A stretch of 64,000 nucleotides of DNA from IMG/VR virus record IMGVR_UViG_3300042311_001406, positions 1 to 64,000 of that record; one strand, written 5' to 3'. The position numbers and the translations under genes are program-made. The stretch is from a virus. Shown in pieces: positions 21,394-45,340 of this stretch. The notes below the pieces were generated by a model. That model saw only the letters and a program-made list of their open reading frames with translations, was not told the DNA's origin and did no database searches. Positions within the stretch are counted from its first letter, which is position 1. Every line of letters begins with the position of its first letter.

Positions 21394-24285
21394 ATGACGA
21401 TGACCGATGTCATTCGTGTTCGTGTCTGGATCGAAGGCGTCCTTCTGCCTGATGCTGCGTTTGGCGGCATCGACACAAACTCAGCGGCCAGGGGTGGCGC
21501 TGGCGCAACGTTGTCGATCCTCAACATTCCTGGCATGCGACCTGAGGAGTGGGGGCGCGCTCGCTGCGCCGTGGCGTGGAGCAACGTCGAGATCAGAAAG
21601 ACCCGAGGCGAAGACTGGCCGATGCTGTACGACGGAGAGATCGTCGCGTACGGCGACCACAAGAACCCGATGAGTCGCAGCGTCCAGTTTTCGCTCAACA
21701 GCGAGGACATTCACTTCGATCAGTGCCGTCTGTACTACTTCAATCGAGATACGGGAGCCAACGTCATCAACGTGCCGAAGACAGCGTACTTCTTCGGCAA
21801 CTCGTCGATCGAAGAGAGCATTGCGGCACCCGGTCTTGACACCGTCAATCGTCTCGTCGAAGCCATTCGTGCGCAGGGGAACGCCCCGCTGCCATCGAGC
21901 ATGCGCACGGCTTTCAAGGCAACGCTGAGCACGAACTTCTTCTTTGAGCGAGCTCGCCAGCAGCTTGGTCTCGATCGACGCTTCGGCGTGGCGAAGGATG
22001 ACTTCGCGGCTCTCTTGTACTCGAAGAGGGACCTGTTGTTCTCGCAACTGGAAAACGGCGTCGCCGTTCGCGAGGGCGACACGCCTATTCGACAGATCAT
22101 CGAAGAGATGCTCTCGAAGTTCCGCTACGGCCTGACGGTGAACCCGCAGCCAACCGTGATTCGTGGCGGCGACAAAACCGACTTGTCCCCCATCACCGAA
22201 CAGCGAAACCAGGCGCTCGCATCGGCCGAAGAGATCTGCATTCGCCTGCTGGGTGTTTCGCCTTCGATGGTGCCCATCACCGAGCGAACGACGGACGAAG
22301 AGATCAAGGTCATCGCGCTGAAGATTGCGCACCCCACGACCCGTGCGAACCTCTTCCCGGCTGCAGACCTCAGCCTCGAAGGCGTCAGCCTGCTCAGCGA
22401 TCCGGCGACCAGCACCGGCGACATCCAGAGCTACATGGATGAGATTGGCCCCAGCATCATCGAGTCGTTGAAGCTGATTCGCAGCGAGCTGTTGCGCGCC
22501 GCAAGCACAGCGACGACACGAGCTGCCGTCGAGGTGATGGACGAGGACGCAGACTTCAGGGATTACGTCGCTCAGTTCATGCTGCTGCCAGACATGCAGC
22601 TGGCGGCGATCCCTCGTTGCAATGTGATCTTTCCGAACGAGAACAGCAGCTACAGCACCAGCAGGAACTTTCTGCAGGAGCCGACGCGCACCATGAAGTC
22701 GGTGCCCACCGTCAATGGCGCCTCGGATGAAGTCTACTTCGCTCCTGGCAATCTCTCGACGACTGCCGTCAAGAAGACACCGGTCACGACGTACACCGGC
22801 AACTTCTCCATGTGCCCGCCTGTGCTTGTAGCTGGCGGCATCAGCAAAGTGATGGGGAGCAAGTTCGGGAACCGACAGGACCCACTCAACAGCACGGAGA
22901 CCAAGCTCAAGGCTCACAGGGGCATCGACCTCCGCGTTCCCAAGAGAACGCCAGTGCTCTCGGTGCTGGATGGCACCGTCATGTCGTCCCAGCTCGACAA
23001 GCCAAAGGCTGGTGGCCTGTACGTGGTGATCCAGCATGTCGGGAACGACTATACGAAGTACATGCACCTGCTCTCGTCTTCAGTGAAGCCTGGAGACACG
23101 GTCAAGGCTGGCCAGCAGATCGGATTCAGCGGTGGTGATCCAGCCGACGGGCTCAGCGCTGGCGGCAGCACTGGTCCACATCTTCACTTCGAGCTGCACC
23201 GCGGTAGCCGGTCGAATCCGGTGAACCCGGCCGACTTCCTGTTCAAGTGCCAAGACGCGTTCGACAAGAGCGTTGGCAGCGGCAGCGTGTTGGCGACGTC
23301 GTCGGCAGCCACGGAGATCGCGGCCGTTGACGAAGAAAATGCGCAGACGATGGCTGACGGCATCAACAACACCAGCGAGAAGCCGTTCGCTGATTTCGAG
23401 TTCCTGACGCCCGCAGAAGAGGTCCTTGGCATCGTTCCGAACATCGACACGTCGATGGATCGAACCATGACCACGTACTCCGTGCAGGGTGGAGAAGATG
23501 GCCGGAAGAAATACCTGCAGCAGCTGGTGGAAGCCGATCATCAGTCAGCCAGGTACAGTAGCCGAAGCTTTTCGCCGGTGACGATGCCGTTCACGCCGCG
23601 ACTCGTCGCAGGAATGCCCGGTCTCATCGTCGACAACTTTCGACCCGTGATCGTGTTCATCGAGTCGGTGCATCACTCCTATAACCCAGCTGGCGAGGCA
23701 ACGACGACGGCGTCGGTGCGCGGCTACCGGTTCTGGGACGAGGGCGACCCGTACTACTGGCGCGGCGGCAGGGAAGCATTCAAGGAGGCAACCAAGGATC
23801 AGGATGGCGTCAAACAGCCGGACCCTGACGTCGCCAACTTCCCTGGGTTCATGCTGCCCTCCATCTTCGCGACCAACAGCTACGAAGGTCCGCCTGAGAC
23901 CAGCAATGAACCGTTTGGCGGCAAGAACCAGGCACGTCCGAACGATGCGTTCTTTGAGTCGATGATCGGGTGCAAGGGGCTGCCGTACTACTACACGGAG
24001 CGCCAGAGCCCCATCACCGGCGAGACCTTGTCGTACAACGCCTTCATTGGCCACCTCGTGAACTACTACCGGGCGCTGGTTGACACCAGCCACGAGGCTG
24101 CCTCTGGTTTTGTGGACAGTTTCACCTCTCGCTCGTCAATGCACGTCGACGAATACTTCCTGCAGCTCCTCAAATGCCAACCGGGCGCAGGCGGCTACAA
24201 CGGACCCGCATTCCGTGCAACAATCAGGGCCGTCGTTTTGGACTACGTGGCCAAGGTCAGCTCGTCGCACGCATTCAGAGGGTGA
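21394..24285 (+). CDS. Baseplate hub-like protein with inserted M23 (LytM) peptidoglycan endopeptidase
   Basis: HRGID (HxxxD), TKYMHL, VKPGDTVKAGQQIG, STGPHLHFE (HxH), PVNP. Confidence 0.85.
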   Translation: MTMTDVIRVRVWIEGVLLPDAAFGGIDTNSAARGGAGATLSILNIPGMRPEEWGRARCAVAWSNVEIRKTRGEDWPMLYDGEIVAYGDHKNPMSRSVQFSLNSEDIHFDQCRLYYFNRDTGANVINVPKTAYFFGNSSIEESIAAPGLDTVNRLVEAIRAQGNAPLPSSMRTAFKATLSTNFFFERARQQLGLDRRFGVAKDDFAALLYSKRDLLFSQLENGVAVREGDTPIRQIIEEMLSKFRYGLTVNPQPTVIRGGDKTDLSPITEQRNQALASAEEICIRLLGVSPSMVPITERTTDEEIKVIALKIAHPTTRANLFPAADLSLEGVSLLSDPATSTGDIQSYMDEIGPSIIESLKLIRSELLRAASTATTRAAVEVMDEDADFRDYVAQFMLLPDMQLAAIPRCNVIFPNENSSYSTSRNFLQEPTRTMKSVPTVNGASDEVYFAPGNLSTTAVKKTPVTTYTGNFSMCPPVLVAGGISKVMGSKFGNRQDPLNSTETKLKAHRGIDLRVPKRTPVLSVLDGTVMSSQLDKPKAGGLYVVIQHVGNDYTKYMHLLSSSVKPGDTVKAGQQIGFSGGDPADGLSAGGSTGPHLHFELHRGSRSNPVNPADFLFKCQDAFDKSVGSGSVLATSSAATEIAAVDEENAQTMADGINNTSEKPFADFEFLTPAEEVLGIVPNIDTSMDRTMTTYSVQGGEDGRKKYLQQLVEADHQSARYSSRSFSPVTMPFTPRLVAGMPGLIVDNFRPVIVFIESVHHSYNPAGEATTTASVRGYRFWDEGDPYYWRGGREAFKEATKDQDGVKQPDPDVANFPGFMLPSIFATNSYEGPPETSNEPFGGKNQARPNDAFFESMIGCKGLPYYYTERQSPITGETLSYNAFIGHLVNYYRALVDTSHEAASGFVDSFTSRSSMHVDEYFLQLLKCQPGAGGYNGPAFRATIRAVVLDYVAKVSSSHAFRG

Positions 24286-37291: not shown

Positions 37292-39592
37292 ATGACCACG
37301 AGCATCTTCCCCTGGTACAATGTCGATCTCGATGCAGGTCGATTCCTTGAGCTGTTCCGACAGGTTGTTCGGAGCGGCGTCGTCGAAGGCAGCGAGGTCA
37401 CTGCAGGGTCCAGCGGCTGGAACATCAGCATCAATGCCGGCAAGGTCTTGGCTGACGGCAGCGTCGTCTACGACGACCTGACGAAGCTCAACCACACGAA
37501 CCTCGGCCACGTCGCTGGCAACGATGGCCACTACGCCGTCTACGAGACGTACGCCTACGCGCCCACGAACCCGCCGCCAGCACCCGCCTACTTGGTAGCC
37601 GCAGCGACGCCGCCGCTGCAGCCGGTTGTGCCTGGTGGTGGCGTCAAGCTCGCTGACATCTTCATCCCGGACACGGCGACCAGCATCCTGAGCCCAGGCG
37701 TGCGCATCGTCAACGCGCCCAAGCTCTTCTCGCGCGCCGACAGCGGAGAGCTGATCGATCGTCTGGTGATGAGCATCGGCAACACGCAGACGCGAACGAA
37801 TGGCGCCGTCAACTACGACGACACGACCGGCAACATCACGCTCACACAGAACCTCATCATCGAGGCCACGTGCTCGTCGCACCGTCAGCAGTTTGAAGAG
37901 GCCCCGCCGTTGGTCCGCGGCGTCATCCCTGCTGGCACCTACGCGGTCCCTGGTACGTCGCCGAACCGTGATGTGCTGGTGTACACCCTCTTCGACCGAA
38001 GCGTCCCGAACGAGAACCTGGCGTGCACGCTCAAGTTCTTGGATCGAAACGCTCCAGACTTCGGCAACGTCACGGAGCTTTTGCTGCCGTCGAACCACAC
38101 CAAGATCAAGATCCTGGGCATCGTCAGCGGCACCCGCATGTCGCTGGTCGACCTGAACGGCCAAATGCCGCCGCCAGATGCTGATGATCGCAAGTTCTTG
38201 CGGGATGCTGCTGATGGACAGCACCTGTGGGAACTCGTCAGCGACAGCAAGTCGGTGGGTGGCCACAAGGCAGGTGTCTCGAACATCACGGCTCGTGACG
38301 CCATCGCCAGCGACCTGCGGAAGCAAGGCATGATCTGCTACGTCCAAAGCACTGGCCTGTTTTACGTGCTTGAAGGTGGCCTCACCAACAGCGACTGGCG
38401 CGTCTTCAACGACTCGAATTTCGCCATCGGCGGCCACCACGTCGTCGCCGATCAGGCAACGCTGCTGGCGATCCCCAGTAAGTATCTGCGCACCGGGATG
38501 TCGGCGTACCAGGTCGACACCAGCGCCGTGCGTCGCTGGAAAGAGAACATCTCGATCGGCACGCCCAACAACTGGGACTTTGAGTTCTATAGTCGCGGTG
38601 ACGAGCTTGGCGCCAGGATCGGTGTCGACACCATCTACCCTGGCAACGAGTTCACGGCCAGCACCAAGATCGCAAAGCGAGAACTCAAAGCGCTGGCATT
38701 CCTCGGCAAAAACCCAGATGCGAATGCCGGATCTCGCGTCGTCAATGGCGGTGAGCTGGTGCCGTTTGAAGTCGGCAGCGTGCCGATGGCGCTCCTGCAT
38801 CCAACGACCGCGATCACAGCCAATGCGACTGAGGGGGCCACCAGCTTCGTGCGCACCACCAGCGCCGTACAGATCAGCCTGAACACGGGCGTTCCGGCGT
38901 CGTTCATTGGTGGCGTGGTGCCCAGCTCGTACCCGTCGAACGTGTACTGCTTCCTGCGAAGCGATGGCTCGCTCCGGGCCAGCACCGTGGCGCCAGATTC
39001 CCGAGGTCGCCCATCGGCGGCTGACGCCACCTACACGACGAGCGACTACTGCTACGTCGGCATGCTGCGACCCAAGGCCAATGTCGGCGACTTCACGGCG
39101 GTGTGGGGCACTTTCAGCGTGAGCCACGACGGAGACGGACGTCGTCACATCATGTTCGACATGGATGAGACGGCTCTGTACGGGTCCAGCGTGTTCGGCT
39201 CCATCACGGAAGGCGTTCCGGAAACGATCGACACTGGTCCAGTGTCGGGTCCCGCCACACTGTTCCCGACTTCCATCGACGTCGACGCCAACCACCTCAT
39301 CACGGTGGCCTGCGGCTCGGATGGTCTTGAGGCTGTACTGGAGGCGACCATCGGCGGCGCCATGATCACAGCTCGCGTTCTCAGCAACGCCACTCCGGCC
39401 GGCATCAACGGATCGGCGTTTGCCACCACCACAACGCCCAGCCGCGCAGACCGCCCCAGGGTCAAGCTCTCGCTGAACGTTTCAGCGGCGACAGGTGCTT
39501 TCCGCGCCTGCAAGCACGAGCTGCGCTACACTGGCATCCTTGAGAACGTCAACCGTCCGATCACCCTTCGCCAGAGCACGTTCCTGCCATGA
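37292..39592 (+). CDS. Tail fibre protein
   Basis: GVVEGSEVT...INAGKV N-terminus; two RDAI...RKQGMICYV-type repeats. Confidence 0.65.
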   Translation: MTTSIFPWYNVDLDAGRFLELFRQVVRSGVVEGSEVTAGSSGWNISINAGKVLADGSVVYDDLTKLNHTNLGHVAGNDGHYAVYETYAYAPTNPPPAPAYLVAAATPPLQPVVPGGGVKLADIFIPDTATSILSPGVRIVNAPKLFSRADSGELIDRLVMSIGNTQTRTNGAVNYDDTTGNITLTQNLIIEATCSSHRQQFEEAPPLVRGVIPAGTYAVPGTSPNRDVLVYTLFDRSVPNENLACTLKFLDRNAPDFGNVTELLLPSNHTKIKILGIVSGTRMSLVDLNGQMPPPDADDRKFLRDAADGQHLWELVSDSKSVGGHKAGVSNITARDAIASDLRKQGMICYVQSTGLFYVLEGGLTNSDWRVFNDSNFAIGGHHVVADQATLLAIPSKYLRTGMSAYQVDTSAVRRWKENISIGTPNNWDFEFYSRGDELGARIGVDTIYPGNEFTASTKIAKRELKALAFLGKNPDANAGSRVVNGGELVPFEVGSVPMALLHPTTAITANATEGATSFVRTTSAVQISLNTGVPASFIGGVVPSSYPSNVYCFLRSDGSLRASTVAPDSRGRPSAADATYTTSDYCYVGMLRPKANVGDFTAVWGTFSVSHDGDGRRHIMFDMDETALYGSSVFGSITEGVPETIDTGPVSGPATLFPTSIDVDANHLITVACGSDGLEAVLEATIGGAMITARVLSNATPAGINGSAFATTTTPSRADRPRVKLSLNVSAATGAFRACKHELRYTGILENVNRPITLRQSTFLP

Positions 39593-40879: not shown

Positions 40880-41196
40880 CGGAAGGCAAGCAAAGGATCG
40901 ACTTCGGCGCCAGGGTGTCTTTGTTTCCCGGCAAGGACACCTCCGAAAGCCTGCTCTTCTTCGACATGGTAGCGGTTGGCTTGGTCGCACGCATCATCGT
41001 CGAGCTCGACGCCAGTAAGCATCAGATTATCCGCGAAATCACGATGCACAAGTCTCCGTACGCGAGCCAGGAGTTCATCTCCTACATGGAGGAGTGCGGT
41101 TTCAAGGTGAACGTGGTCGATCATCTCGCTGGTGAGGTGGTCAAGGTTTCACCGTCGACAGACCTGAACCCTATCCAACCGCCCGATAGAATCTGA
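40873..41196 (+). CDS. Hypothetical protein
   Basis: GGAGG SD, ATG 40873. Confidence 0.6.
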   Translation: MLTEGKQRIDFGARVSLFPGKDTSESLLFFDMVAVGLVARIIVELDASKHQIIREITMHKSPYASQEFISYMEECGFKVNVVDHLAGEVVKVSPSTDLNPIQPPDRI

Positions 41197-41251
41197 CACA
41201 CGGCCAACCAATTTGATGACCGTCGGTTCCCGGCAACGTAGAATTGCCGGC

Positions 41252-42214
41252 ATGACGAAACCGACGGCCATCTCTTTGTCTGCTGCAGTCCAAGGGCTCC
41301 CGCCTTCGGACGTGAATCGCCCTGTCCGCAGCCTGGAGACAGACCTTTGGTTGGTGCTGAGCGGCAGTGGGGCAAAGTACCCTGCCTACTTCGGCGCCGT
41401 GCGGCGCTTCATCACCAAGTACGGCCGCCGCTTCAGCCGCTTCTGTGGCTGCAGTGGTGGGGCCTTGGCGGCCGCCTTGATGGCGACCGGCAAAGACATC
41501 CAGGAGTGCATCGAGATCGCGAAGGCCATCAACCCGAGCGAGTACCTCGACAGCAACATCTTCACGCCTGCTGTCATCGTGTGGCCATTCAACAACGAAG
41601 GTCTCTACGACGGCGACAAGCTGCTTGGAGTGCTCCGCAAGGTCTTCAAAGGACTGAAGATGGCTGACCTGCAGCATGAGCTGCACGTCGTCACCTACAA
41701 CATCCAGCGCAAGCAGACGATGATCTGGGGCAACCGCCCCATCAACCATCCGAATGCTGTCTACGCTCCAGACATGGAGGTTGCGCTTCTGGTGCGGGCC
41801 AGCATCAGCCTCCCGCTGATCTTCAACATGGTGAAGATCAAGTACAACCGTCTCATCGGCGGCAAGGTCGTCGAGGACTACCACATCGACGGCGGCGTCG
41901 GCGGGAACTTCCCGATCGACATCTTTGGCGACAGTTCACGAGTTGTTGGCCTCAGGTTCAAGCAGCAGAGCCAAGATGTCGCGACGCCCATCAACAACAA
42001 GATCGACCTGATCTCCTCTGTTGTTGACGCCTTCATCGACTCAACCATGAAGGAGCACATTGAAGATGCGCTGCACGCAAAACAGGTTCACATCGACACG
42101 AAGTTCAACGGCCTCGACTTCAATCTGACGCCTTCAGCCTTCAACGGACTGATGCAGGATGGGGAACGCTGTGTCGACCAATGGATGAAGGAGAATGCTG
42201 ATGACGCTCGCTGA
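41252..42214 (+). CDS. Patatin-like phospholipase
   Basis: LVLSGSGAK oxyanion loop, GCSGG (GxSxG), RASISLP, IDGG; likely leaderless start ATG 41252. Confidence 0.9.
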   Translation: MTKPTAISLSAAVQGLPPSDVNRPVRSLETDLWLVLSGSGAKYPAYFGAVRRFITKYGRRFSRFCGCSGGALAAALMATGKDIQECIEIAKAINPSEYLDSNIFTPAVIVWPFNNEGLYDGDKLLGVLRKVFKGLKMADLQHELHVVTYNIQRKQTMIWGNRPINHPNAVYAPDMEVALLVRASISLPLIFNMVKIKYNRLIGGKVVEDYHIDGGVGGNFPIDIFGDSSRVVGLRFKQQSQDVATPINNKIDLISSVVDAFIDSTMKEHIEDALHAKQVHIDTKFNGLDFNLTPSAFNGLMQDGERCVDQWMKENADDAR

Positions 42215-42533
42215 AATCGGTTTGCTCATGCGGGATCTCGGCGGATGGGGTGTCTCAGCCGTCCTTTTGTACGCTTTGAAGAAAATCTATGATGACAAGG
42301 AGGCTGCGGCCAAGAAGTACAGCGTCGAGAAAGACGAAAACTTCAAGATGATTCTTTCGATAAGCGAGAACATGGCTGAGGTGTTGGCGACCAACACCGA
42401 GACGAGTCGTGCCCTGAGTGCTAACCTGCACGAGCTGCGAGACCGCTTCTTGTCAAATGGCAAGGCTGGCGCTGGCAGCCGAACCTTGCTGGCGGGCACC
42501 TCAGAAGATGGTCGTTCGCACGGAGACAGATAG
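42201..42533 (+). CDS. Holin-like protein (one N-terminal TM helix plus coiled coil; BhlA/UviB-like architecture)
   Basis: LGGWGVSAVLLYALKK followed by a charged helix. Confidence 0.5.
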   Translation: MTLAEIGLLMRDLGGWGVSAVLLYALKKIYDDKEAAAKKYSVEKDENFKMILSISENMAEVLATNTETSRALSANLHELRDRFLSNGKAGAGSRTLLAGTSEDGRSHGDR

Positions 42534-42535
42534 CC

Positions 42536-42928
42536 ATGACGTTCATCAAGAAGCTGTTCGATCGTATCGGCAACGTGTCGCCGCGCTGTGAGGCACCATC
42601 GGACACAGCCAGCATCGGCAAGATTCTCGTCGATGCTGGCCGCATCTCAAGCGATCAGCTTCAAGAAGTCACCGTCTCCCAGAAGCACATTACAGAACGG
42701 GTCATCAGCGACGAGATACTGCGTCGCGGATGGGTCGACGAAGAAGACATGAAGCGCGCGCGCTCCATCCAAGCGAAAATTCAAGCTGGTGACGAGATGC
42801 GCGCCCAGATCGAAATCACCCAGATGCGCCTCAGTGAGGCCCTACGCGTCGAGAAGAACCTGAAGGCTGTCGTCAGGACCACGATGCCAATGCTCACGGC
42901 CATGAGCGCCATCTCCGCGGACTCCTGA
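42536..42928 (+). CDS. Protein with MshEN-like tandem motif (putative c-di-GMP-binding fold)
   Basis: SIGKILVDAGRISSDQLQEVTVSQ...RVISDEILRRGWVDEEDMKRARSIQ. Confidence 0.6.
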   Translation: MTFIKKLFDRIGNVSPRCEAPSDTASIGKILVDAGRISSDQLQEVTVSQKHITERVISDEILRRGWVDEEDMKRARSIQAKIQAGDEMRAQIEITQMRLSEALRVEKNLKAVVRTTMPMLTAMSAISADS

Positions 42929-43021: not shown

Positions 43022-43426
43022 ATGGTGCTTCGAGTTGATGATGCTGTTCGTTCTGCTGTCGTGAACGCGATTCGCGACGCCATTGACGCTGGTGCTGGCG
43101 CCGGCCTCCTCCGCATCTACGCTGGCGCAAAGCCTGGCACCAAAGGTGCCGCTCCTGCAGGCCTTCTGCTGGCCGAGTTGACGCTGGCAGATCCTTGCGG
43201 TGTCACCACCACTGGCGTGCTCAACTTCACCGTGCCGTTCTCGGACACCAGCGCCAACAACAGCGGCACCGCGGCGTTCTTCTACCTGTGCACCAGCACC
43301 GGCGCGTACGTGGCGGAAGGCGACATCGCCACCTCCGGCAGCGACCTGAACCTCGTGACGACATCGATCGTCGCTGGTCAGCCGGTGCAGGTGACGTCGT
43401 TCTCGTTCACCGCTGCCGGCGCCTGA
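43022..43426 (+). CDS. Small virion structural protein (paralog of 12424..12822)
   Basis: LLRIYAGAKP...SGTAAFF...SGSDLNL..TSIVAGQPV. Confidence 0.75.
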   Translation: MVLRVDDAVRSAVVNAIRDAIDAGAGAGLLRIYAGAKPGTKGAAPAGLLLAELTLADPCGVTTTGVLNFTVPFSDTSANNSGTAAFFYLCTSTGAYVAEGDIATSGSDLNLVTTSIVAGQPVQVTSFSFTAAGA

Positions 43427-43454: not shown

Positions 43455-43904
43455 ATGGCTGACGACGTCAACATTCCAGATGCAAGCGATGTCCCCACTC
43501 CGATCGCTACTGATGAGGTGGCTGCTCGGCATCATCAGCTCGTCAAAATGGAGTTTGGTGAGGACGGCGTGGCTACGCCTGTCAGCGCAGCCAACCCGAT
43601 GCCGACCACGCTGTTCGGCGAGGTCGTTGAGCAGCTGTCGGCGATCCGCATGCTGCTGCAGTCGATGATGAAAGCAAGCATGGGCTCCCTCCCCGACGTC
43701 GCAGGCCGCATGCGCGTCAACGTCGAAACAGGATCAGTGGGTGTGAGTTCACTGCCAACGCTTGGCACGGTGACGACCGTGACGACGGTTGCATCCCAAA
43801 CGAACCAGGTGAACATCGGCGGCCTTCCGGCCATCGAACAGATCCCATCCCTTATGCGCCTTGGCGCTGACTCGCTGCGCCGAAACATCACGGTGACACC
43901 ATGA
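43455..43904 (+). CDS. Hypothetical virion/fibre-associated protein
   Basis: AAGGAGG SD; IATDEV...HHQLVK...VSAANPMP. Confidence 0.7.
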   Translation: MADDVNIPDASDVPTPIATDEVAARHHQLVKMEFGEDGVATPVSAANPMPTTLFGEVVEQLSAIRMLLQSMMKASMGSLPDVAGRMRVNVETGSVGVSSLPTLGTVTTVTTVASQTNQVNIGGLPAIEQIPSLMRLGADSLRRNITVTP

Positions 43905-45340
43905 CCACCACGAATGGCAATCGACCGATTTTGGATCTCAAGCGCTGGGAGTTCTGCGCGCCAGCGCCAGTAGCGTCCGCTGCTGGATCGTTTATCATGT
44001 CATCACGACACCACCGACAGCGTCAGCTGTACATCGTCAATGCGACGACGCACTACCTCTACATGCCGGAAGAAGATGGTTGGGTGCAGATTCCCAGCGG
44101 CGCGCTCGCGGGAACATTTGCGGCTGGTGCCTGCGGAACAGGCACAGCTGTTGGCCCATCAGGCACTGCAACAGTCGCGTCGACGACGTCGACGATCGTC
44201 AGCAACTTGAACCTGCAGCGCGATCTCCGTGGCTACTCGTTGTTTGTGACGGGCGGCCCCAACGCGGGCGCAACGCTGAAGATCCTGAGCAACACGATTG
44301 GCGCCAACAGCGTGATCACGGTGGCCACACAAGGCACAGCGTTCAACGCTAGCACCACGTTCCGCTTGTTCACGCCTCGGTGGTACGTTCTCAACGCCAT
44401 CACGGCATCAGGAACCACCACCGCGAACGTGTTCAAAATCTACGACCTGGCAACCAACACTTGGTCCGCCGCAGAAACAGGCGCAACTGACGGCGTTGCT
44501 CCAGCTGCAGTCATCGGCACCGATGGAAAGCTGATCGCTACGCCATCATGGGTTGACGATGACTACGTGTCGTTCGCGACAGGGACCGCCACTGCAGGTG
44601 CGACCAGCACGTTGACGTTCGGCAGCGCAAACTGGGCTGTCAACCAGTGGGCCAACTCACAAGTCCGCATCTCGGCAGGCACAGGCGCTGGTCAGATTCG
44701 CAGCATCACTGCCAATACAGCAACCGTGTTGACGGTAGCAGCGCCTTGGACCACTCCGCCAGATGGAACGTCGGTGTTCTCGATCGAAGGGAATGACGAC
44801 TACATCTATTACACCGGATCTGGTGCCACCGCAGTCTTTCGATATTCGATTTTGTCGGGTGCTTGGCAGTCGATGACTGCTCGTGGCGGTGCACCTGGGG
44901 CCGGCATGTCTGGTCATTGGATCTATGAGGTCGATGATCCGGCGTGGAACCTTCCAAATGCCATTTTGAATGGTCGGTACATCTACTCGTTCCGCGGCGC
45001 CAACGGCGCTGTGCTGGATCGGTACGACATTGCCGCCAATACCTGGACGACGTTGTCGTATGCGCCTGCTGCAGAGTTGATCAACACAGGCGCTAAGCAC
45101 GTCTACCGAAAAAACTTCATCTACACCCAGCAGCTCAACACGGGTCGATGGTTGGTGTTCAACATCGTCACCAGCGGACAAAACGGCTTTTCCACGATGA
45201 TGTACACTCAGGGAGCCGCAGTCGTTGGCGACACAGCCTTCGATGTACACTACCGAGACGGCACAACTCAGATCGACTATGTGTACATGCTGTTGAACAC
45301 GTCGACGGTTTTGCTGCGGTGCATGATCATCAACGACTGA
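43901..45340 (+). CDS. Kelch/beta-propeller-like fibre protein
   Basis: YDLATNTWS, YIYSFRG...RYDIAANTWTTL Kelch-like blades. Confidence 0.65.
   Translation: MTTTNGNRPILDLKRWEFCAPAPVASAAGSFIMSSRHHRQRQLYIVNATTHYLYMPEEDGWVQIPSGALAGTFAAGACGTGTAVGPSGTATVASTTSTIVSNLNLQRDLRGYSLFVTGGPNAGATLKILSNTIGANSVITVATQGTAFNASTTFRLFTPRWYVLNAITASGTTTANVFKIYDLATNTWSAAETGATDGVAPAAVIGTDGKLIATPSWVDDDYVSFATGTATAGATSTLTFGSANWAVNQWANSQVRISAGTGAGQIRSITANTATVLTVAAPWTTPPDGTSVFSIEGNDDYIYYTGSGATAVFRYSILSGAWQSMTARGGAPGAGMSGHWIYEVDDPAWNLPNAILNGRYIYSFRGANGAVLDRYDIAANTWTTLSYAPAAELINTGAKHVYRKNFIYTQQLNTGRWLVFNIVTSGQNGFSTMMYTQGAAVVGDTAFDVHYRDGTTQIDYVYMLLNTSTVLLRCMIIND

Follow-up and report, generated by a model that had tools for sequence, protein, structure and literature searches.

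The 64,000-nucleotide stretch analysed here (the window; bases 1-64000 of the 91,322-bp IMG/VR virus record IMGVR_UViG_3300042311_001406) encodes a pair of small proteins from adjacent open reading frames (ORFs), ORF2 and ORF3, which constitute a conserved unit in phages. ORF3 contains a predicted bundle of the MshEN type, and ORF2 is a small membrane-protein candidate. In the window, the pair directly follows a gene for a patatin-like phospholipase, a component that is facultative. What is new is a phage-encoded MshEN-motif protein that stands alone, is invariably accompanied by a small putative membrane protein and is repeatedly located beside a lipase; a literature search revealed neither a phage-encoded MshEN-type protein, cyclic di-GMP (c-di-GMP) receptor or MshEN mimic nor a phage patatin linked to a partner of this type. 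At least nine phage lineages conserve the combination of stand-alone MshEN-motif protein and putative membrane partner. Should the pair sense c-di-GMP, phages would read a host signal for biofilm formation and motility to time a late step, and should it gate the lipase, an enzymatic membrane-attack element would be added to phage release. Even if neither applies, a well-defined, previously unannotated phage gene pair (82 and >40 sequence clusters for ORF2 and ORF3, respectively) now has a fold assignment. The original prediction, which was made from the sequence of the window, viewed the three genes as a possible unit linking the c-di-GMP state of the host to phospholipase-assisted lysis. A conserved unit, the kinship to MshEN and an intact patatin were recovered, but the pair, and not the trio, is the core, the patatin is not a CapV orthologue, and the holin-like label of ORF2 reflects its architecture only. 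The elements concerned are the following.

41216-42214, + strand: patatin-like phospholipase (Pfam PF01734), 332 amino acids from the ATG at 41216 (alternative ATG at 41253, just past the hairpin)
42201-42533, + strand: ORF2, small bitopic-type protein, 110 amino acids (112 from 42195), described from its AlphaFold2 (AF2) model and family conservation
42536-42928, + strand: ORF3, stand-alone MshEN_N-like protein, 130 amino acids, described from its AF2 model, structural matches and NF053729
41222-41265, + strand: predicted RNA hairpin with a CCGGCAA/UUGCCGG core and outer pairs (-17.4 kcal/mol, z = -2.46)

The three ORFs are located head to tail on the same strand (41216-42928). ORF2 overlaps the patatin stop by 14 nt and ORF3 begins 2 nt past the ORF2 stop, in agreement with the tight coupling noted before. 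The composition is of the coding type in all three: the GC content at third codon positions is 0.78, 0.68 and 0.75 for patatin, ORF2 and ORF3, respectively, and that at second positions ~0.4.

Residues 25-82 of ORF3 are assigned to the MshEN/GSPII motif superfamily by four independent lines, i.e., profile searches, an NCBIfam model, the predicted fold and the motif register. In the AF2 model (pLDDT 87), this segment forms a four-helix bundle in which a 6-residue spacer joins two 24-residue motifs, and residues 87-129 form one long helix; the C-subdomain of MshEN is absent. The model superimposes best on c-di-GMP-bound MshE-N, 5HTL (Z 8.7, rmsd 2.3 Å over 56 residues, model residues 25-82 vs. 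chain residues 8-64). The top five in VIA-align (5HTL, 8PDK, 6F8L, 7LKM, and 2D28; Z 8.7-6.7) are all GSPII/MshEN domains, with 5HTL followed in rank by PilF GSPII-B, PilF, the PilB-N:PilZ complex (7LKM) and XpsE-N (2D28), whilst unrelated coiled coils, which match the C-terminal helix, begin at Z 5.8. A Foldseek search of the PDB with the whole model gave no match; the long C-terminal helix dominates this model. The motif register is consistent with the superposition on MshE-N.

At the sequence level, NCBIfam model NF053729, "cyclic di-GMP-binding domain, MshE-related" (53 positions), matches residues 27-78 of ORF3 over profile positions 2-52 with 32.1 bits (E=7.2e-8), short of the 38 bits set as the curated cut-off. 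Among 25 members of the ORF3 family, 10 reach E<=1.2e-9, estimated to be at about cut-off level, and the best reaches 2e-13. In contrast, the Pfam MshEN model (PF05157, 90 positions), which includes the C-terminal part that is absent from ORF3, did not match ORF3 even at E<=10; at E<=0.1, it was also without a match in the genomes of five of these phages. Thus, the search with MshEN models that had been proposed as a check was negative for Pfam and, for NF053729, gave a match that is below cut-off for the window's protein; the tandem 24-residue motif itself was borne out by the latter match, the predicted fold and the superposition on 5HTL. A profile built from ORF3 and two relatives retrieved 970 proteins at E<=1e-3 from among 1.84 billion. 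The best 150 of these 970 comprise stand-alone full-length relatives (94-155 amino acids) and multi-repeat proteins that cover only profile positions ~24-84, including a protein with a 135-bit match to Pfam MshEN, a fusion to a GT2 glycosyltransferase, a chemoreceptor, and PATAN/DUF4388 proteins. CdgR was considered as a relative of ORF3 and discarded, as it has a ComFB-type fold with a different binding mode.

ORF3 thus resembles the MshEN/GSPII domains of MshE, PilF, PilB, and XpsE (5HTL, 8PDK, 7LKM, and 2D28), which serve as c-di-GMP receptors of the ATPases of type IV pili and type II secretion systems, in its four-helix, two-motif bundle. It differs from them in being phage-encoded, stand-alone and always paired with a small membrane-protein candidate, in having a long helix instead of the ATPase and the C-subdomain, in the replacement of both Arg residues and an acidic lead-in, and in escaping detection by Pfam MshEN.

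The partner, ORF2, most likely starts at the ATG at 42201, since a Shine-Dalgarno sequence, GGAG, at 42190-42193 is located 7 nt ahead of it. Its AF2 model (pTM 0.27) shows a short N-terminal helix, a single helix from residue 17 to 92 and a disordered, charged C-terminus. A hydrophobic segment with a G-G-W motif runs on into the long charged helix, which is a coiled-coil candidate. Positive charges past the hydrophobic segment suggest that the C-terminus is cytoplasmic. A single transmembrane segment is plausible. The one long helix and the hydrophobic N-terminal part of the single-span coiled-coil protein described earlier were found again, but the putative membrane-spanning segment is marginal in this copy and clearer in homologs: the Kyte-Doolittle value of the hydrophobic stretch is 1.29 over 19 amino acids in the window's ORF2 vs. 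1.75 in the L002 homolog. ORF2 matches no Pfam, PHROG or NCBIfam family, its family of 82 clusters is likewise without a Pfam domain, and the source names in this family are only generic or evidently wrong; the clusters share the motifs LLQKGGPW and EKQxLNDRLI.

When IMG/VR was scanned with family alignments of the patatin, ORF3 and ORF2, eight further viral records with an ORF3 homolog were found, i.e., nine including that of the window. Pairs were detected with HMMs of the three families and, in two intervals, by eye. All nine records carry the two genes in one order, with the ORF2-type gene immediately followed by the ORF3-type gene. Several ORF2 and ORF3 clusters (~43 in the latter family) stem from contigs of equal size, which fits co-occurrence. 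The position of the patatin gene varies. It is directly upstream of ORF2 in four of the nine (the window, L002, L013, and L014), tens of kilobases from the pair and amid DNA-metabolism genes in G001 and G006, and absent from two near-complete genomes (G002, 96%, and G004, 100%). The remaining record, G003, is without a patatin match but is only a 25%-complete fragment; with this record set aside, six of the eight assessable pair-bearing records have a patatin somewhere in the genome. Conversely, patatins of the same clade are found without the pair, in non-structural contexts, in other phages (L003-L009). The conserved unit, therefore, is the pair of ORF2 and ORF3, and the patatin is facultative. 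Conservation of the gene neighbourhood, which had been proposed as a check, was seen for the trio in four distinct phage backbones, always with one gene order, but only the pair is constant. Since it persists without patatin in G002 and G004, its primary job needs no lipase. The pair lies inside structural gene blocks in all nine records: in the group of L002, L012, L013, L014, and L027, it is located between capsid-side and tail/baseplate-side genes, and in L017 it is beside tail-fibre-like genes.

The patatin scores 99.4 bits (E=3.8e-28) against Pfam PF01734, for which the gathering score is 27.7, and it covers positions 1-190 of the 191 in this profile. Its catalytic set is intact, as had been noted: the oxyanion motif S-G-S-G-A-K (G50, G52), the nucleophile elbow G78-C-S80-G-G82, and D225-G226-G227 are invariant in alignments with five and eight homologs. 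The closest homolog, P0002, shows 51% identity; P0002 and the ORF3 homolog P0172 each come from a 21,744-bp contig, which is the only hint of linkage for P0002. The first ~45 residues are not conserved, and most relatives start right at the catalytic domain. The protein is therefore read as probably cytoplasmic; neither is a signal peptide conserved in the family. The N-terminal extension (41216-41350) contains the sequence S-R-Q-R-R-I-A-G, followed by a weakly hydrophobic stretch, which is faintly twin-arginine-like. Secretion was considered and rejected, as the S-R-Q-R-R stretch is missing even from the homolog with 51% identity.

The original prediction also compared the enzyme with CapV, the patatin of cyclic-oligonucleotide-based antiphage signalling systems (CBASS) that is activated by cyclic GMP-AMP. 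The two have in common the patatin fold, the Ser-Asp dyad, a cytoplasmic location and the cell's own membrane as the target (both presumed for the phage enzyme), and possibly a link to cyclic dinucleotides. However, the lipase CapV is itself the target of the nucleotide, whereas a nucleotide-binding motif, if any, would here be on a separate protein, the lipase is phage-encoded, and there is no cyclase gene: no CD-NTase gene is located beside the patatin gene, whose neighbours are virion-type genes and ORF2/ORF3. Orthology was rejected on the score against the CBASS_lipase model (NCBIfam NF041079), which is 25.5 bits vs. a cut-off of 200; the phospholipase effector models of PADLOC gave only E=3.6e-11, over the catalytic core, and ORF2 and ORF3 together gave a single marginal match in PADLOC (E=0.0087). 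A purely lytic enzyme is at odds with the location of the patatin among early or DNA-metabolism genes in two pair-bearing relatives, and the early-type gene neighbours in several relatives argue that the enzyme is not an unregulated, indiscriminate membrane destroyer. Closer in setting are the patatins of phage WO and marine megaphages, which are likewise stand-alone phage genes of untested function (PMC5062602; PMC9723777). In phage WO, the gene closes the tail/structural region (PMC5062602). Neither report describes a partner of the patatin that is MshEN-like or could anchor it to the membrane.

What, then, does the proximity of patatin and pair mean? Four phage backbones with almost no other proteins in common carry the trio intact and in one order. 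Within the DNA compared, the window's phage shares with the other pair-bearing phages, beyond the trio, only one 158-amino-acid protein and one weak Gly-rich match. A maximum-likelihood tree built from 24 patatins does not group the four pair-adjacent enzymes together; unlinked ones branch among them. The L013 patatin is sister (100/100) to the unlinked group of L005, L008, and L009, and the L014 patatin, which keeps G-A-S-A-G and D-G-G, falls in a different major clade, on a long branch whose placement should be read with care. The juxtaposition, therefore, was gained at least twice, and gained or lost several times. Such repeated juxtaposition favors a functional link between the patatin and the pair.

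The sole clear backbone protein common to the window's phage and the L013 phage (G000 90247-90723 and L013:7839-8333, respectively; phmmer E=1e-9) is located 1.5 kb downstream of the pair in L013 and 47 kb off in the window's phage.

We tentatively favor, as one possibility that may well prove wrong, an adaptor model, in which an MshEN-like protein tethered to the membrane would position or gate a cytoplasmic lipase late in infection. The N-terminal hydrophobic helix of ORF2 would insert into the cytoplasmic membrane, with the long helix reaching into the cytoplasm. ORF3, a presumably soluble protein, would dock on ORF2 by coiled-coil pairing, to which the long helices in both models are suited, and would thereby stay attached to the cytoplasmic side of the membrane. 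The MshEN-like bundle may then serve as a sensing or adaptor surface for c-di-GMP or for a protein partner from host or phage. MshEN-type domains are protein-docking modules of membrane machinery, e.g., in the PilB-N:PilZ complex 7LKM. In phages with the patatin gene directly upstream, such as that of the window, the pair might place this lipase on membrane phospholipid or gate it there, at a late stage of infection, and thereby aid envelope breakdown at release. The explanations considered here are not all mutually exclusive.

Several observations weigh against this adaptor arrangement. The pair is found without any patatin in G002 and G004, and the location of the patatin gene among early or DNA-metabolism genes in G001, G006, and L005-L009 is a poor fit to an enzyme for lysis only. 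Adjacency could also have resulted from a permissive insertion site between structural gene blocks; small unrelated ORFs are located at the same junction in L013, L014, and L027. The hydrophobic segment of ORF2 is short and, in the window's copy, marginal, and all relatives of the trio are metagenomic. None of the trio members matches a holin, spanin or endolysin family in Pfam, PHROG, PADLOC or NCBIfam, and in the complete relatives G004 and G006, a distance of at least 30 kb separates the muralytic domains (SLT, Amidase_2) from the pair. Since the lysis genes of large phages may be dispersed, this distance weakens the link to lysis without refuting it. Holin families are diverse, and a missing family match is compatible with holin-like action. 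The absence of an adjacent endolysin, already noted earlier, was confirmed, the neighbours being virion-type; Phage_lysozyme, SLT and Amidase_2 domains were not found in the 91-kb record either, which is uninformative as the record is only ~50% complete. The holin-like label given to ORF2 before reflects its size and architecture alone. A spanin formed by ORF2 and ORF3 was rejected, as ORF3 has no lipobox and there is no conserved Cys in the family. Holin T of phage T4 acts with a cytoplasmic antiholin, RIII. The ORF2/ORF3 pair would be comparable in consisting of a candidate membrane protein and a presumably soluble, helical cytoplasmic partner, both small and probably late, but it shows no similarity to holins or antiholins, has no adjoining muralytic enzyme, and its hydrophobic segment is marginal.

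A related explanation is that ORF3 binds host c-di-GMP and, via ORF2 and/or the patatin, makes the time or extent of membrane damage or lysis depend on the c-di-GMP state of the host, or that it acts as a tethered c-di-GMP sponge. MshEN domains are defined by two 24-residue motifs joined by five residues, with six key residues each (R, L, G, L17, L21, and Q24) (PMC5013675). In MshE, c-di-GMP is contacted by a hydrophobic cluster of L10, L25, L29, L39, L54, and L58, by the amides of G11 and G40, and by Q32 and Q61, whilst Arg9 and Arg38 stack on the bases (PMC5013675). Binding is mainly hydrophobic: a change of Arg9 shifted the affinity less than fivefold, whereas binding was lost when two or three of the Leu residues were exchanged (PMC5013675). 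The consensus of the ORF3 family fits this picture in part, as it retains L10, G11, L25, L29, and Q32 as well as L39, G40, L54, L58, and Q61, i.e., five of the six key residues per motif, which, together with the NF053729 matches in the family and with c-di-GMP-bound MshE-N and PilF GSPII-B as the best structural matches, speaks for binding. However, Arg is missing from both motifs. Among 42 stand-alone relatives, position 1 is Ser in 29 in motif I (helix N-cap residues in 39) and Leu in 24 in motif II, the spacer usually has six residues instead of five, and the lead-in of motif I is acidic (D-x-x-S), in contrast to a basic patch in MshE. GSPII-A of PilF is a cautionary look-alike: it is near-consensus, with Ser opening motif II, and did not bind even after the consensus was restored (PMC12002112).

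The window's own ORF3 deviates further. Its motifs read S-I-G...L...T...Q and V-I-S...M...R...Q, and neither the full six-residue set nor the 5-residue spacer is present; besides the Arg residues, three more key positions are changed (L29 to T46, G40 to S58, and L58 to R76), among them Leu residues of the kind whose combined replacement abolished binding by MshE. As in the earlier caveat, the first motif starts with SIG and the second is degenerate. With these losses, the subthreshold NF053729 score and the precedent of PilF GSPII-A, binding of c-di-GMP by the window's ORF3 is doubtful, somewhere between unlikely and possible, whilst it is possible for the family as a whole. No GGDEF gene was found in these phages. 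Gating by c-di-GMP is, on balance, unlikely.

Equally improbable in our estimate is a role in morphogenesis, in which ORF2 and ORF3 would be membrane-associated helpers of virion assembly, with the patatin as an auxiliary moron at a permissive junction. The logic resembles that of phage T4, which has a membrane-bound head-assembly chaperone. The location of the pair within structural gene blocks in all nine records would be readily explained, as would the conserved gene for a protein of ~170-200 amino acids that always follows the pair in the group of L002, L012, L013, L014, and L027, the mobility of the patatin within these genomes, and the small extra ORFs at the same junction. Harder to accommodate are the preservation of the trio in the window's phage in spite of its almost unrelated backbone and the presence of a patatin of a second clade at exactly the same spot; moreover, domains with MshEN motifs are not known to take part in virion assembly.

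ORF3 could also act as a decoy. When held at the membrane, it may mimic the MshEN/GSPII N-terminus of PilB, MshE or GspE and compete for a PilZ-type or platform protein; late shutdown of type IV pili or type II secretion would then lead to superinfection exclusion or prevent adsorption of progeny to dying cells, and the patatin would be unrelated. The phage proteins Tip, Aqs1, and Zip, which disable PilB or PilZ, provide a precedent (PMC11656802), although the pilus inhibitors known from phages have unrelated sequences and were not described as genes of late structural operons or as MshEN mimics. The top structural matches do include 7LKM (PilB-N:PilZ) and 2D28 (XpsE-N), and ORF3 lacks the remainder of the ATPase as well as the C-subdomain, as a minimal mimic would, but the same pair of motifs is present in many non-pilus proteins, such as glycosyltransferases, chemoreceptors, and PATAN proteins. 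Conservation of the pair independently of the patatin is in line with a decoy; the repeated juxtaposition with the patatin is left unexplained. A decoy function seems quite unlikely. Still more doubtful is the most far-reaching version of sensing, i.e., that uncultivated large phages own a membrane-tethered cyclic-dinucleotide receptor which reads host c-di-GMP and switches a phage patatin and the time or mode of envelope breakdown, as a counterpart of the nucleotide-gated lipases in bacterial defence systems.

The -10 element postulated earlier, TAGAAT, is present at 41239-41244, but its frequency is no more than chance: three copies were observed in the window vs. 3.8 expected. A promoter scan found two promoter-like sites vs. 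1.0 +/- 1.1 in shuffles. A second TAGAAT is located at 41187; all three copies are on the + strand, and two of them are at most 70 nt upstream of the patatin gene. The copy at 41239-41244 lies within the loop of the hairpin listed above, just ahead of the alternative patatin ATG at 41253. Only 2 of 200 shuffles folded equally well. A regulatory or processing function is conceivable for the hairpin with its TAGAAT loop, as is a promoter from which a leaderless transcript would start.

The window's phage is a novel, uncultivated large phage, whose record has a CheckV completeness of ~50%. Nearly all genes of the window are on the + strand, the GC content is ~60%, and tRNA genes are absent. According to Pfam and PHROG searches, the trio is embedded in a late/structural gene block with virion-type neighbours; the following features were recognized.

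21394-24285: M23 peptidase domain within a 963-amino-acid protein
37292-39592: tail and virion PHROG matches
43022-43426: phrog_3758, "virion structural protein"
43901-45340: Kelch-motif protein

DNA and protein searches with the region, the patatin and the ORF2/ORF3 homologs revealed no look-alike in 50,697 deposited phage genomes, and tblastn found no relatives of the window's patatin in this set. Single-sequence scans of IMG/VR gave no matches, and a metagenome scan yielded no contig beyond those already in the set. Two scans of GTDB species genomes, with the ORF3- and ORF2-family alignments, were also empty, and thus gave no prophage copy and no clue to the host.

Some further observations concern the surroundings of the pair and of the patatin in other phages. 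The protein of ~170-200 amino acids mentioned above, which has no Pfam or PHROG match, is always encoded after the ORF3-type gene in the non-window phages; in the window, the phrog_3758 virion protein takes this place.

L002:9400-10017, L013:6407-6928, L014:6417-6941, L018:488-1081, L020:6387-6926, L027:5656-6168: protein encoded after the ORF3-type gene

An ORF3-type gene is present at both ends of the L017/L018 contig (IMGVR_UViG_3300042898_006838, 155,932 bp), which suggests a terminal overlap and, hence, a circular or terminally redundant complete genome; the IMG/VR class is linear. On this contig, L018:3630-4298 was considered as an M15-type endolysin and rejected, since sequence searches of Pfam and the PDB did not bear this out. 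In L019 (L019:4442-5319, IMGVR_UViG_3300035701_000168), genes for a 109-amino-acid multi-pass membrane protein and a 183-amino-acid protein with a His...Cys pattern reminiscent of a permuted papain/NlpC-type hydrolase are located close upstream of the pair, separated from it by a small coiled-coil ORF, roughly in the place that the patatin takes elsewhere. A papain-type hydrolase at L019:4768-5319 was discarded in the absence of Pfam or PDB sequence support; the only match was to phrog_1128 (E=4e-9), which has an unlikely name.

A stretch of ~99 residues of the Kelch-motif protein in the window recurs with 51% identity in ORFs of four phages that have a patatin but not the pair (tblastn E-values as low as 1e-15); these ORFs are located ~5-6 kb downstream of the patatin gene in L005-L008. 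Finally, in two low-GC phages, a conserved Lys/Glu-rich protein of ~77 amino acids with a PG-PW-K motif is encoded next to the patatin, downstream in one (L003:5883-6119) and upstream in the other (L004:7749-7982), and is a candidate for a patatin partner distinct from ORF2 and ORF3.

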